Shown piece by piece: positions 12,419 through 16,117 of a stretch of 60,104 bases of DNA. Source of the DNA: Selenomonadaceae bacterium (GTDB lineage Bacteria > Bacillota > Negativicutes > Selenomonadales > Selenomonadaceae); the NCBI GenBank assembly GCA_017554285.1, contig JAFZIQ010000149.1:1-60104 (forward strand). The letters run 5' to 3'. The notes beneath the pieces are model-generated. The model was not told the DNA's origin. It worked only from the letters and a program-made list of their open reading frames with translations, and did no database searches. The position numbers and the translations under genes are program-made. Within the stretch, counting starts at the first letter, position 1; the number at the start of each line of letters is the position of its first letter.

Positions 12419-15400
12419 ATGGCTGATTCATATTTTCCCATGCTTCCGAAAGTCAATGAGGATATTTCTAAGGTTTTGAAAGACCAAGCGGGCATTTGGA
12501 AGGAAACGGATATAAATTTTTTGCAGGGACTCGCCAACAGTCTTGATTGCGGCGATTCTATCAAGGATATGGGGTCGGTAGATTCCATTCCCGATATTTG
12601 GGCGCGTCCCTTGCTGTTTAAAATGGCTCTGTTCGATTTGGAACCGAATAAACAACTCGTTACAGGGCTTCATGACAAAGTTAAGGGCGAATGGCGCGCT
12701 TTATTGGCTATGTTCGCTCTTAAAGACTTCAAACAGCTCGATTTACGCGCCGAACATGTTAATTTGCTCGAAAATCATTCCGAACTTGCCAAAATCTTAA
12801 AATCTCTTGCTCCGAACGATTCTTTAACCGGTAATAAATCGGCTTGGCTCACCGACATTTACATTATTTACTTCAACGGCTCTCCAATCGCCATGACTTC
12901 ACCGACAACTTTAGCGGCTCCCGCCGCCGATTACGAACAAACTTTTGACGGAAAAATATTCACTCCGTTTAGTTCCGATAATAAAATTCTTACCGACCCG
13001 ATAAAATTTCTCTCTCCTGCCGAACTTTCTGCCCTTAAAATCTGGTTGCAGAATCTTTACACCAAAATTCAATCACTTAACATTAAAGCTAACGAAATTT
13101 CCAATTCTGTTTTGAAATGTATTGCAGATTATCAATATGACGTAGCCGCCGCGCAGATTGACGATGAAAATTTTGATTTGGTACCCTCCAATCTTAATTT
13201 ACACGTCGGAACAGCCCGCTTGCTCGATGATACCGTTAAGGGACGCGAACCGCGCTTTGAAGATTCTGCCGTCCGCCTTATAAATGACAAGAAAAATTTA
13301 TTGCTTGTCTCTCCGGATTTTGTAAGGGATTTTGCCAAATTTGAGGGCGTCAATCCTGCTAAACTCGTCGTTTGGCAAGGTATCAGCGCAAATGACATCA
13401 CCAACGATAAATTATCCTCCGATTATAAAAAAATCGGGCGCACTGTCCTTAAAAATACCGAATTCCGCAGACCCGAAGATTTCTTTTATGAAAAAATGGC
13501 TGTCACCGAACCCGCCAATGCTTTTCCGAATTCTCCGAAACTTCAAGGCGCGGATTCTCTTTCCGATAAAGATTTAACCCCCATTCTTCCCGTCAAGCGC
13601 GAATTATTGGAAATTTTCACGCCCGAAGAGATTTCCGACCGTATTTCTGTCTCCGACGATAAAAATAATTTCTATGTTCATTTTATCTTTCCGCTCAGCG
13701 GCGTCGACGGCAAAGGTACAAACTTCCGCTACACAAAAGCTTATCCGAAACAAAATTTGATTTACATAGACCAAGAAGTCCCCGTAATAGAAATTTATCC
13801 CAATTTCCGCCGCTCGGATTGGAATACTTATTTCCTCTACTACGAAAATTATCGTGCTCAATCCGATGATGATAATCTTGCTCCCGATATTTATTTTGTT
13901 CAGCCTTTTAACTCCAAAATCCGCGAAAATTTCTTGCAAAATCGTTTCACAACCAAATTGGATAACTTCCCGCAAGTTTTAATCGTTACTTATAATCCGC
14001 CGCTCCATTCTAATAAAAAACCTCACGAAATCGGCGCAATCCTCCTTAATAAGCCCAAAAATATCGAACGTAATACGGATTTGTCATGGAAAATCGGCGT
14101 TGATTTCGGGACAAGCTCCACTATGGTATTTTTCTCCGAAAATAATAATTCGCCGCGTCCGTTAAACTTTTCTCCGCATTTATTCCAAATCACAGCCAGC
14201 GGCGGCGCGAGAACTCAAACTTATCGCCATTTTATCCCCTCTCAAATCCCTAATCGGCTCGACGGCTCCTTTTTAAGTATTTTTCATATCCTCAACGTAG
14301 AAAATGTAAAAAATATTCGCCCGCTGCAAGACGGACATGTTTTTTTACTCAGTTCGGAAAATGTTCGCGTCTTCGAGCAATTCGCCGGTCATATTGACGC
14401 TAACCTTAAATGGCAGGACGACGACCGCCAACGCCGTAAAACCGCCGCTTATATTAAGCAAATTTGCCTTCAAGCCGCTGTCGAGGCTTTTTCTAACGGC
14501 GTAAACAATATTCAATGGAATTTTTCCTACCCTACAGCCTTTTCTCAAGCTCAAAAGGTATCTTTCCAAGAAATTTGTCGCGAATCCGTCAATAATACTC
14601 CAAATTTTTACTCCGAGAGCAAAGCCGCCGCCTATCACTTCAACAATCTTGACGGTAAAGCCGGAAATCTCGCGCAAGGCGCAATTTGCGTAGATATTGG
14701 CGCAGGAACGACCGATATTAGCATTATCAGCGGAAATTCGCCCCGAATTGTCTATCATACTTCCATTAAATACGCCGCAAGGCAAATGTTCAAGCCTCTT
14801 TATGATAATTTTGAGCTTTTCGCCGATGAAAAAATCATTTCGGGCAAATTAAATGACGAAACTCAACGTCAAGCGGTTATCGATGCCGATATGCGCGAGC
14901 ACTCCGATAAATATTTAGCCGATTTGAAATTCAAAACGGGCAATGAACAAATCAAATCCGTTTTGCAAACCGCGCAGGTCGCTGCTGCCGGCTTATTCCA
15001 TTATCTCGGCGAATTAATTCGCATTCTGCACGATTACGGGCATTATCGCGAAGAAAAAATCCCTCATGTATTCGTTGGCGGCAACGGAGCGCGTATTTTT
15101 CATTGGCTCACGGGCGGCACCGATATTAACGGCAATATTTATCTCAATGTACTTGAAAATATCTTTTGCGCGGCGAGCGGGCTTGAAAATTATAAAAAAT
15201 TCTGTCTGCATTTGAGTCCGCAACCCAAAATCGAAGTCGCGGCGGGTATGATTGTCGATAAACCTGCCAATGACGTCGAATTTTTCGATGAGGAACGCAT
15301 TAATCGCGAAATGTTCGGCGACGCTGATGATTTTATTTATTCTGCAGTATTGGCGGGCGCGGATTTCAATCAAGGCGGCGAAACTCAATCGGCAAGTTCC

Positions 15401-16117
15401 TTTATCAGTGCGCATGACATTTTCGAGGGCATTACCATTAACAGTCTGCGCGAATTTAAAAATTTCGTTGAGCGGTTTAATAATTCGCAGAAATTATGGG
15501 CTGAAGGCATTAATTTTGATGAAGAAGAACTGATTCGCGACACAAATAATTTCTACGCCGATAAAAAGGGGCGCGATATAAAAAAAATGTCCGTCGAACC
15601 TGTTTTCATAGCCGAATTGAAAATTTTTCTCGGCAACGGCGAGCAAAAAGCGACTAGGAAAACAATTTCAGCCGAAAAAAAATCTCCGAGTGCCGAAATA
15701 AGCATCGGAGAGAAATTTGTTAATGATTTTAATGCGTTGGAGAAATTGAGCGGTTTCAGTGCACGTCAGGCGCGTGAAAAGTTTTTAAGACGTTACAAAG
15801 TGCGCGGTTTAAACTGCGCGAACGTCGAAGAGCGCATGAATAATCCGAAGACAGCTCCGACCTTTTCAGAGAGCGCGAGCATTGCCGGCAGTGATTTTTG
15901 GGCTTGCGAAATCGACGAAAATTTATTTGCCGTCGTCCCCAATATCAAAACTTATACGGAAAATCATCACGCCGAACGCGCTTTCGGGCTGGTTTTTGAA
16001 TCGAATTATGAACGCGGAACTTATTCGCGACTTCGCGTTGAGCGGGCGGCTGTTTTAGAGTTCGGCGACGATAATTGGCAACTCAAATCTTCGGGAAAAA
16101 TTGTACTCAACAGGTAA
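12419..16117 (+). CDS. Large uncharacterised protein with a central actin/Hsp70-like (ASKHA) ATPase core
   Basis: 1232 aa. Three ASKHA motifs occur in the correct order: phosphate-1 IGVDFGTSST (about nt 14093-14122), phosphate-2 CVDIGAGTTDISI (about nt 14687-14725) and adenosine motif VFVGGNGARIFHW (about nt 15067-15105). I could not assign the ~555-aa N-terminal or ~250-aa C-terminal regions to any family. Confidence 0.6.
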   Translation: MADSYFPMLPKVNEDISKVLKDQAGIWKETDINFLQGLANSLDCGDSIKDMGSVDSIPDIWARPLLFKMALFDLEPNKQLVTGLHDKVKGEWRALLAMFALKDFKQLDLRAEHVNLLENHSELAKILKSLAPNDSLTGNKSAWLTDIYIIYFNGSPIAMTSPTTLAAPAADYEQTFDGKIFTPFSSDNKILTDPIKFLSPAELSALKIWLQNLYTKIQSLNIKANEISNSVLKCIADYQYDVAAAQIDDENFDLVPSNLNLHVGTARLLDDTVKGREPRFEDSAVRLINDKKNLLLVSPDFVRDFAKFEGVNPAKLVVWQGISANDITNDKLSSDYKKIGRTVLKNTEFRRPEDFFYEKMAVTEPANAFPNSPKLQGADSLSDKDLTPILPVKRELLEIFTPEEISDRISVSDDKNNFYVHFIFPLSGVDGKGTNFRYTKAYPKQNLIYIDQEVPVIEIYPNFRRSDWNTYFLYYENYRAQSDDDNLAPDIYFVQPFNSKIRENFLQNRFTTKLDNFPQVLIVTYNPPLHSNKKPHEIGAILLNKPKNIERNTDLSWKIGVDFGTSSTMVFFSENNNSPRPLNFSPHLFQITASGGARTQTYRHFIPSQIPNRLDGSFLSIFHILNVENVKNIRPLQDGHVFLLSSENVRVFEQFAGHIDANLKWQDDDRQRRKTAAYIKQICLQAAVEAFSNGVNNIQWNFSYPTAFSQAQKVSFQEICRESVNNTPNFYSESKAAAYHFNNLDGKAGNLAQGAICVDIGAGTTDISIISGNSPRIVYHTSIKYAARQMFKPLYDNFELFADEKIISGKLNDETQRQAVIDADMREHSDKYLADLKFKTGNEQIKSVLQTAQVAAAGLFHYLGELIRILHDYGHYREEKIPHVFVGGNGARIFHWLTGGTDINGNIYLNVLENIFCAASGLENYKKFCLHLSPQPKIEVAAGMIVDKPANDVEFFDEERINREMFGDADDFIYSAVLAGADFNQGGETQSASSFISAHDIFEGITINSLREFKNFVERFNNSQKLWAEGINFDEEELIRDTNNFYADKKGRDIKKMSVEPVFIAELKIFLGNGEQKATRKTISAEKKSPSAEISIGEKFVNDFNALEKLSGFSARQAREKFLRRYKVRGLNCANVEERMNNPKTAPTFSESASIAGSDFWACEIDENLFAVVPNIKTYTENHHAERAFGLVFESNYERGTYSRLRVERAAVLEFGDDNWQLKSSGKIVLNR

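Follow-up and report, generated by a model that had tools for sequence, protein, structure and literature searches.

A giant actin/Hsp70-fold ATPase of Selenomonadaceae and its kinship with a subunit of a tubulin-linked operon

Two kinds of described multi-gene system come closest to the setting of the gene treated here, a giant ATPase gene of a Selenomonadaceae bacterium that lies at 12419..16117 (+) in positions 1 to 60,104 of contig JAFZIQ010000149.1 (assembly GCA_017554285.1); this whole stretch of 60,104 nucleotides is called the window below, and the gene and its product the window gene and the window protein. In defining FtsZl1, Makarova & Koonin 2010 (PMC2875224) put forward a system for membrane remodelling in which FtsZl1 is accompanied by vWA, GTPase and OmpA-like proteins. 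The families associated with it are vWA, OmpA-like, GTPase and B1-B9, with no actin-like member among them, and the cyanobacterial FtsZl1 proteins are ~1,050-1,130 amino acids (aa) long; Additional file 5 of that paper contains amb2961 of M. magneticum (1626 aa, COG0443), a giant DnaK-like protein paired with FtsZl1. Kaur et al. 2020 (PMC7159879) described conflict systems built on DO-GTPase/GAP1 in which tubulin or HSP70 can be a theme; the two themes form separate neighbourhood types, the HSP70 one being accompanied by GrpE and DnaJ.

Among single proteins, the bacterial actin-like proteins MreB/Mbl, FtsA, MamK and BeeR have the fold and five nucleotide-binding motifs in common with the window protein, and in sequence the likeness is best around phosphate-2, where DIGAGTTDISxIS of the window protein compares with DIGGGTTExAVIS of the bacterial actins. 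The window protein is, however, ~3.5 times their size, owing to an N-terminal domain of 555 aa, a helical extension of 125 aa and a tail of 140 aa, and its gene stands in neither an mreBCD nor a division context. The nucleotide-binding domain of Hsp70/DnaK is an equally good structural match (E ~5e-9, target template modelling (TM-) score ~0.5), but the window protein, unlike Hsp70/DnaK, does not match PF00012 and lacks both a substrate-binding domain and a DnaJ/GrpE partner. An earlier note on this DNA, made from the sequence alone, had named SrfB-type proteins, described there as large and built around an actin-like ATPase, as the closest architecture. That comparison was abandoned: PF07520 gives no match at E<=1 for the window protein and reaches E=0.23 in 1 of 13 family members, and the window gene shares with SrfB systems the large size of its product but, unlike them, has no srfA- or srfC-like neighbours.

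Relatives of the window protein are to be found elsewhere, in an operon that encodes a tubulin-like protein, a giant ATPase and small adaptor proteins. The window gene is a Selenomonadaceae-specific duplicate of this ATPase, fused to the tail domain of an adaptor via a short disordered linker and detached from the operon.

The operon form and the fused form

A homology search in metagenome-assembled genomes (MAGs) of Selenomonadaceae returned two size groups, the fused form and the operon form. The fused group comprises 64 full-length homologues of ~1,230 aa that are 66-100% identical to the window protein. Members of the operon-form group are ~1,110 aa long and 43-56% identical to it; they stop at VEPVFIxELK and have no tail. 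The genes of the Selenomonadaceae short form follow one another in the order lipoprotein (predicted, ~435 aa), a protein with about four hydrophobic, putatively transmembrane segments (~165 aa; the four-segment protein below), Tubulin_2 (~490-500 aa), giant ATPase and tail proteins, usually with a Zn-ribbon/transmembrane protein after them, although the genes downstream of the adaptors are otherwise variable. There are one to three adaptors per operon, each with an N-terminal transmembrane helix and/or coiled coil followed by the 140-aa tail domain. The tubulin-like neighbour scores 33.6 and 40.2 bits against Pfam Tubulin_2 (PF13809), for which the gathering score is 27. The first operon gene occupies 6633-7946 in locus L002, 6668-7969 in L010, 4538-5971 in L075 and 4613-5935 in L083, and an alignment of the lipoproteins contains an invariant lipobox-like Cys and the vWA-like (DxTxS-like) motifs VDATxSMQGF, VVTDLFQxDSD and RPFYL.

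The same operon order is found, with protein identities of 22-30%, in a MAG of Clostridia, Gloeobacterales, Aphanocapsa, Rhodothermales, KSB1, Paracidobacterium acidisoli and a Eubacteriales MAG, and the operon is also carried on plasmids of Gloeothece verrucosa PCC 7822 and Picosynechococcus PCC 73109. On the Gloeothece plasmid the neighbour of the ATPase appears in RefSeq as 'tubulin-like domain-containing protein', the rest of both plasmid operons being 'hypothetical protein'. Over its body (~1,075 aa) the window protein is 22-57% identical to Tubulin_2-adjacent ATPases from six phyla, mostly along the full body; the most distant of these, in loci L084 and L086, are partial, or supported by a tblastn E value of 7e-15 and the alignment only.

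A profile search of 1.84 billion representative sequences, with clusters taken at 50% identity, returned 1,932 clusters of the giant ATPase family at E<=1e-3 and 706 at E<=1e-30, and the top 150 are mostly near full length (~1,050-1,150 aa). A search of a second database yielded 196 further homologues, of which the organism-named ones are cyanobacterial and nearly all called 'hypothetical protein', a label borne by almost all named homologues in the other databases searched as well. Culturable cyanobacteria (Gloeothece PCC 7822, Picosynechococcus, Calothrix) are among the carriers. A search of the literature brought up no paper on this giant ATPase family or its tubulin operon, and no full-length match to a characterised family, which the earlier note had named as an outcome that would speak against novelty, was obtained. 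The family is large, broad (at least six phyla), unnamed and uncharacterised, and its ancestral setting is a tubulin-plus-ATPase operon. Its members, of ~1,100 aa, combine an N-terminal half of ~555 aa with a new fold, an ASKHA core and a helical extension.

What distinguishes the window protein from its operon-form relatives is the C-terminal part of the chain, which is arranged as follows:

12419..16117 (+), open reading frame of the fused 'long-type' giant ASKHA ATPase (body plus tail), 1232 aa, ATG start
15269..15643 (+), C-terminal extension of the body, for the most part helical, aa 951-1075
15644..15700 (+), linker, aa 1076-1094, flexible and hypervariable, predicted local distance difference test score (pLDDT) below 50
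15701..16114 (+), tail domain, aa 1095-1232 (~140 aa), homologous to the C-terminal domain of the small downstream adaptors

The extension ends at the conserved VEPVFIxELK, which is the stop point of the operon-form proteins. Beyond the linker, the tail is 31-45% identical to the adaptor tails (E 1e-20 to 1e-43 in tblastn and blastp searches of small databases, and cross-phylum alignments). Because its C-terminal tail matches the adaptors encoded downstream of operon-form ATPases, we interpret the window gene as a fused derivative of the operon gene, and the fusion cost the adaptor its anchor and coiled coil. With respect to the operon, the window gene thus has the homologous body and the tail, the latter fused in cis, and is without the adjacent operon genes. 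Pfam and PDB profile searches with the tail returned coiled-coil noise only, and the tail profile, run against the large protein database, found only fused-form fragments and one Synechococcus plasmid protein, with no other architectures. Column entropy amounts to 2.0 in the linker, 0.57 in the body and 0.63 in the tail, and the variable parts are the linker and a loop at aa 481-520 only. We count the conservation of the tail at the level of the body, with a hypervariable linker between them, as support for selection on the fusion. Both flanks of the ATPase core had been described in the earlier note as unassignable; it is true that neither matches a known family, but the tail now has homologues in the adaptors.

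The fused form was seen only in Selenomonadaceae/Quinella MAGs and is closest to the P0065-type operon clade (50-57% identity). Homologues of Tubulin_2, the four-segment protein and the lipoprotein are absent from the 60-kb window by tblastn, and over 30 fused-form loci have none of the three genes in the 8 kb around the fused gene. The window gene is monocistronic at its locus. The view of it as a new single-gene NTPase system therefore holds insofar as the gene stands alone and belongs to an uncharacterised family, and fails insofar as it is a derived paralogue of a subunit of the multi-gene Tubulin_2 operon. A Selenomonadaceae MAG (RGIG4823, locus L017, 2321-6157) has an operon-type ATPase of 1093 aa followed without a gap by a soluble 184-aa coiled-coil tail protein; the 2.3 kb upstream of this ATPase contain no tubulin, four-segment or lipoprotein gene and hold a divergent permease gene. 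L017 is plausibly a two-gene intermediate between the full operon and the fusion.

How does the operon compare with the described systems? As in the FtsZl1 systems (PMC2875224), the operon-form ATPases are found directly downstream of Tubulin_2 among membrane and lipoprotein components, and these components fit the idea, put forward in that paper, of a membrane-associated multi-protein system. In contrast to the longer cyanobacterial FtsZl1 proteins, the operons encode a Tubulin_2 protein of ~500 aa, and the window gene has no tubulin neighbour. The DO-GTPase/GAP1 systems (PMC7159879) resemble the operons in that tubulin- or Hsp70-superfamily proteins are encoded together with membrane proteins, and they also include vWA components, to which the vWA-like motifs of the operon lipoprotein may correspond. 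We nevertheless rejected assignment to these conflict systems, as their core components were not seen in the operons of L002, L075 and L083: by Pfam there is no GTPase other than the tubulin-like protein in these three, the libraries having no GAP1 model, and no FNIII component was detected in the operons.

Several further observations concern the operons. In some of those from Selenomonadaceae three tail-domain paralogues stand in a row (L026 11431-15336, L068 11453-14116), and this arrangement suggests that several adaptors compete for one ATPase. Peptidoglycan-related genes, namely Beta-lactamase2/serine hydrolase, YkuD L,D-transpeptidase, SH3_3 and GH3 genes, adjoin the operon in unrelated hosts (Selenomonadaceae and Picosynechococcus), at 18058-19035 in L002, 13970-15175 in L088, and 5880-6641 and 16489-17670 in L010. 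Proteins with an ARC6-like IMS domain (PF13355), a domain named after the ARC6 chloroplast-division protein, are encoded beside cyanobacterial operons (L075 14360-16636, L088 15293-17131), and the one in L075 combines PF13355 with Reg_prop beta-propeller repeats.

The ATPase core and the N-terminal half

The earlier note had recognised an actin/Hsp70-like core from three ASKHA signatures in the expected order. All three are in place, and connect-1 and connect-2 can be added to them, which makes up the full set of five ASKHA nucleotide-binding motifs, in order:

14084..15268 (+), ASKHA ATPase core, aa 556-950, from Foldseek on the AlphaFold2 model and the invariant motif residues
14093-14122 (+), phosphate-1 IGVDFGTSST, aa 559-568
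14615-14635 (+), connect-1 ESKAAAY, aa 733-739
14687-14725 (+), phosphate-2 CVDIGAGTTDISI, aa 757-769
15068-15106 (+), adenosine motif VFVGGNGARIFHW, aa 884-896
15221-15250 (+), connect-2 QPKIEVAAGM, aa 935-944

An AlphaFold2 model of the C-terminal half (aa 541-1232), built from a 50-sequence alignment, has a mean pLDDT of 83.2 and a predicted TM-score (pTM) of 0.76. Foldseek found 690 PDB matches to it at E<=0.001, the best of which are the nucleotide-binding domains of Hsp70/DnaK, MreB, MamK and BeeR (probability 1.0, E 5e-9 to 1e-7, target TM-score ~0.5); in the model, with these matches, the core has the duplicated RNase-H-like two-lobe fold of ASKHA proteins. An alignment of 13 proteins covering Selenomonadaceae, Clostridia, Eubacteriales, three cyanobacterial lineages, Rhodothermales, KSB1 and Acidobacteria, six phyla in all, was used to follow the earlier note's proposal that the catalytic positions be checked. 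Thirteen residues are invariant in 13 of 13 sequences: D562, G564, T565, E733, S734, A736, D759, G761, D766, G888, K937, E939 and G943. A lack of motif conservation among homologues, which the earlier note had listed as an outcome that would refute its view, was therefore not observed.

Matches to sequence libraries are faint by comparison with the structural ones. Pfam and NCBIfam give the window protein only sub-threshold matches to MreB, FtsA, MamK and EutJ, around phosphate-2 (aa 700-790). MreB_Mbl (PF06723) scores 24.5 bits, below its cut-off of 27, over model positions 97-180 of 327 (84 positions, a quarter of the model), the NCBIfam MreB models reach 20-23 bits against cut-offs of 293-366, and a PDB sequence search with the window protein finds MreB at E=0.12. 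The family profile, searched against PDB, does find MreB, with E 5.5e-4 overall, by way of phosphate-2, phosphate-1 contributing 2.2 bits. Membership in the MreB family was rejected on these sub-threshold profile scores, and membership in the Hsp70 family on account of the missing PF00012 match, substrate-binding domain and J-domain/GrpE partners. By the model and the invariant motifs, the core is a true ASKHA ATPase, predicted to bind and hydrolyse nucleotide; the window protein sits in the Hsp70/actin branch of ASKHA and is a member of neither family. No transmembrane segment or signal peptide was found in it, as had been noted before, the best 19-residue Kyte-Doolittle mean being 1.14, and the protein is a soluble, cytoplasmic ATPase of the actin/Hsp70 fold.

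The part of the protein that precedes the core consists of the following:

12419..12667 (+), N-terminal segment, aa 1-83, highly conserved in sequence, aa 1-58 with pLDDT below 50
12581-12631 (+), family signature DSIPDxWARPLLFxMAL, aa 55-71, the most conserved N-terminal motif of the family
12668..14083 (+), N-terminal domain region, aa 84-555, alpha/beta, then a beta-rich part
13859..13978 (+), loop, aa 481-520, shortened in the window protein

Within the signature S56 and P58 are invariant, and W61 and P64 reach a conservation of 90% or more across phyla; the signature proved specific enough to pick out remote members of the family among 185,579 species genomes. Modelled with AlphaFold2, aa 1-560 give a mean pLDDT of 82.3 and a pTM of 0.75, with aa 85-550 mostly above 85. 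This half has no structural relative at E<=0.001 in a Foldseek search of PDB (best E 0.13, TM-score below 0.12) and no viral one at the same threshold in BFVD, and its sequence matches nothing in a Pfam, NCBIfam or PDB sequence profile search. As modelled, the N-terminal domain region of ~470 residues is without a known structural relative among the libraries searched. Since the two halves of the protein were folded separately, it is conceivable that the poorly modelled segment aa 1-58 packs on the ATPase half. Operon-form proteins conserve the loop at aa 481-520, whereas no other stretch of the body varies as much among fused-form proteins, the normalised entropy difference reaching +1.17 between 32 fused-form and 22 operon-form sequences. 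This pattern makes the loop a candidate for a partner-binding surface that is no longer in use.

Mode of action and alternative explanations

We propose that ATP would be bound and hydrolysed at the invariant ASKHA motifs and would in this way drive an open/closed movement of the domains, with the tail serving as the body's cognate docking module. In the operon the tail would be given in trans by membrane-anchored adaptors, so that the ATPase would be kept next to the tubulin-like GTPase on the cytoplasmic side of the membrane, and through the lipoprotein, the four-segment protein and the Zn-ribbon/transmembrane protein the complex would reach across the envelope. The tail of the fused protein may dock in cis, or head-to-tail between protomers, and the product would be a self-contained nucleotide-regulated switch or scaffold in need of neither tubulin nor membrane anchor. 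Docking of the tail on the body is suggested by the gene fusion itself (Rosetta-stone logic) and by the strict co-occurrence of body and tail from Firmicutes to Cyanobacteria. The fused protein would probably serve the same envelope-associated process as the operon. Our best guess of an envelope-associated role follows from the recurrence of envelope-related neighbours both near fused genes (SLT, M23 peptidase, Mla, LpxD/OmpH) and near operons (the peptidoglycan-related genes and, in cyanobacteria, the ARC6-like genes given above), although most of them are not co-transcribed with the ATPase gene. To this explanation as a whole, that is, a detached, tail-fused ATPase duplicate acting as an ATP-driven switch or scaffold with a self-docking tail, we assign a probability of roughly 0.6.

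Several points weigh against it. The statements on ATP hydrolysis, tail-body docking, oligomeric state and role in the cell are inferences throughout, and for the body-tail interaction the argument is one of fusion and co-occurrence at the level of genes. The absence of tubulin is established for the 60-kb window and for the 8-kb surroundings of the fused genes. The vWA-like motifs of the operon lipoprotein have no counterpart in a Pfam or PDB profile search, in which neither a vWA nor any other match was obtained. The fused form is present in 39 and the operon form in 35 of the 72 species genomes found by motif scan, with both in 2, figures that count the ATPase alone, detected by pattern, in incomplete MAGs; the two forms are close to mutually exclusive. 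Lastly, carriage on cyanobacterial plasmids and the variable genes downstream would also fit an accessory or conflict role of the ancestral system.

As the two forms almost never share a genome, the ATPase-tail pair is suggested to be the functional core, able to operate without tubulin. The fusion provides direct genomic evidence that the ATPase and the adaptor tail domain work jointly, and the fused gene offers a one-gene entry point into a multi-gene system, together with a 470-residue domain that has no structural relative. Operons that join a tubulin-like GTPase with an actin/Hsp70-like ATPase are unusual, and members of the family have so far been unstudied. A bolder reading, which we regard as possible yet doubtful, is that the family constitutes an undescribed envelope machine, composed of a tubulin-superfamily GTPase and a giant ATPase with a new N-terminal fold, and that in one Selenomonadaceae lineage the ATPase was made autonomous by capture of the docking domain of its membrane adaptor. 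If true, this would add a class to the cytoskeletal or cytomotive proteins, with the fused gene as its natural 'minimal' version, of use in finding out the function of the entire system.

The inheritance of the window gene bears on whether it could belong to a defence system. Among 33 fused-form loci, pieces of one arrangement recur, namely DedA/VTT (-), an RTX-like gene of 834-909 aa (-), the fused gene (+), SLT (-), and MlaE, MlaF, MlaD and further genes (+). SLT is downstream of the fused gene in 6 of the 33 genomes, with the Mla operon next in 4 of them, and DedA/VTT is upstream in 10, with an intact RTX-like gene between in at least 6 (e.g. L033, L034, L036). The window protein is 70-78% identical to its counterparts in the syntenic genomes, as compared with 71-75% for SLT, 74% for the MqnA-like protein, 80% for MlaD, 87% for GuaA, ~90% for MlaE and 91% for MetK in the same genomes. 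The guanine-cytosine (GC) content around the gene is 0.40-0.44 versus 0.43-0.50 in the flanks, and the family has no relatives in the viral collections IMG/VR and INPHARED, which led us to reject a phage or viral origin. Given the partial synteny, the housekeeping-like divergence, the uniform entropy, the slight drop in GC content and the lack of viral copies, we regard the window gene as inherited vertically and selectively maintained, an ordinary chromosomal gene of its lineage. The impression of an accessory-looking patch conveyed by the earlier note was not borne out: an accessory island was rejected on the partial synteny, the divergence rate and the weak GC signal, and the syntenic housekeeping context that the note itself had named as an argument against its view is present in part of the genomes, as the counts for SLT and DedA indicate.

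The earlier note had also considered a conflict or defence role. In its present form this explanation would make the fused protein a single-gene conflict NTPase, a compact derivative of an NTP-thresholded operon of tubulin and an Hsp70-like protein, by which an invader would be sensed or blocked. Tubulin or HSP70 components are described for conflict systems (Kaur et al. 2020, PMC7159879), the operon form is present on cyanobacterial plasmids, its downstream genes vary, a calcineurin-like phosphoesterase gene adjoins the L002 operon, and the fused gene of L008 lies near a TnpB-like gene and HEPN/NTase pairs. We nonetheless consider it distinctly improbable. The window protein has zero matches to the defence models of PADLOC-DB v2, and known anti-phage systems were rejected for the operons as well, where the one weak match (LeoBC, E=0.0018) falls on the coiled coil of a tail protein. 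An effector domain is lacking, a Pfam search, whose library includes no GAP1 model, showed neither DO-GTPase nor GAP1 in the operons, and phage and viral collections yielded no copies. A sensor of invaders would be expected to have a hypervariable region, but the gene diverges like a housekeeping gene under uniform purifying selection in partial synteny, and its presence in 39 related species genomes is not patchy. The fused state, with its housekeeping-like behaviour, is a lineage-specific derivative and not a mobile defence gene, and the window gene gives no evidence for a new defence system.

Another possibility is that the protein forms a true cytomotive filament in the manner of MreB, ParM or MamK, serving for instance shape or envelope organisation in the crescent or very large cells of Selenomonadaceae/Quinella, with a tail that bundles filaments or binds cargo. 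The closest matches in sequence and structure include the filament formers MreB, MamK, BeeR and FtsA, the ancestral partner is a tubulin-superfamily protein, and the envelope neighbours SLT, M23 peptidase, Mla, LpxD and OmpH are frequent; however, the non-polymerising nucleotide-binding domains of Hsp70 match equally well, actin-like longitudinal contacts could be obstructed by the 555-aa N-terminal domain together with the C-terminal extension, and the envelope neighbours are convergent or divergent and not co-transcribed, which makes a filament unlikely in our view. The likeness to Hsp70 might in turn point to a remodelling chaperone, in which the core would drive binding and release of a client and the N-terminal domain or the tail would be the client-binding module, standing in for the canonical substrate-binding domain. 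The top Foldseek matches are DnaK/Hsp70 nucleotide-binding domains, one homologue bears the UniRef name 'Molecular chaperone', and connect-1 ESKAAAY and connect-2 PKxEVAxG presumably resemble the Hsp70 motifs. Yet PF00012 does not match at E<=1 in the window protein and 12 relatives, an Hsp70 substrate-binding domain is missing, and no J-domain or GrpE partner is encoded in the window or in the operons; a chaperone of this type appears very improbable. We therefore return to the detached, tail-fused ATPase duplicate as the favoured explanation. On the whole, what the earlier note had observed is confirmed, and its interpretation is partly supported.

Expression signals and neighbouring genes

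The open reading frame, described previously as standing alone, is intact, and the start of its product, MADSYFPMLPK, aligns with the N-termini of homologues. The sites ahead of it are these:

12356..12385 (+), promoter-like site, TTTACT, 18-nucleotide spacer and TG-extended TATAAT, 10 of 12 consensus matches with TG present
12404..12411 (+), Shine-Dalgarno-like GAAAGGAG, 7 nucleotides 5' of the ATG, read from the sequence

Both the extended -10 element (TGGTATAAT, 12377-12385) and the Shine-Dalgarno sequence reported before are thus present, and the -35 element TTTACT is weak. Since a scan of 5 kb finds 16 consensus sites where shuffled sequences lead one to expect 10.1, the promoter is plausible as a consensus match, which by itself is weak evidence.

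The immediate neighbours are likewise as first described, and no DnaJ or GrpE gene is near. Upstream lies a remnant of an RTX-type gene for a secreted protein (Ca-binding GGxGNDxL repeats) at ~11213-12023 (-), with ~90 aa of repeats and a C-terminal domain (...ISGSKLVKK*), followed by a second RTX remnant at ~12258-12330 (-) of which only the last ~25 codons are left (...FSGSKLVK*). As an intact RTX-like gene occupies the same slot in syntenic genomes, these remnants are to be seen as a decayed syntenic neighbour. The first is split by an insertion of ~385 bp (~11360-11745) rich in CCCGCC/GGCGGG hairpins, which Rfam does not match even at E<=1, which has a fold z-score of -1.4 and of which none of the retrieved loci contains a copy; its sole partial match is one of 41 nucleotides (88%) at 59338-59377 of the window.

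In one of the other fused-form loci (L007), a 973-aa HSP70-family (PF00012) gene at 1-404 lies ~9.6 kb from the fused ATPase gene and is probably unrelated to it. On the 3' side of the window gene is the SLT lytic transglycosylase gene (16169-16780, -), and downstream of this an outer-membrane lipid-transport cluster extends over 16912-26784, with MlaE, an ABC ATPase, an MlaD-domain protein, further open reading frames and one of 1462 aa. Several related genomes share the first part of the cluster, as far as a 504-aa open reading frame (20765-22279) and the beginning of the one after it.

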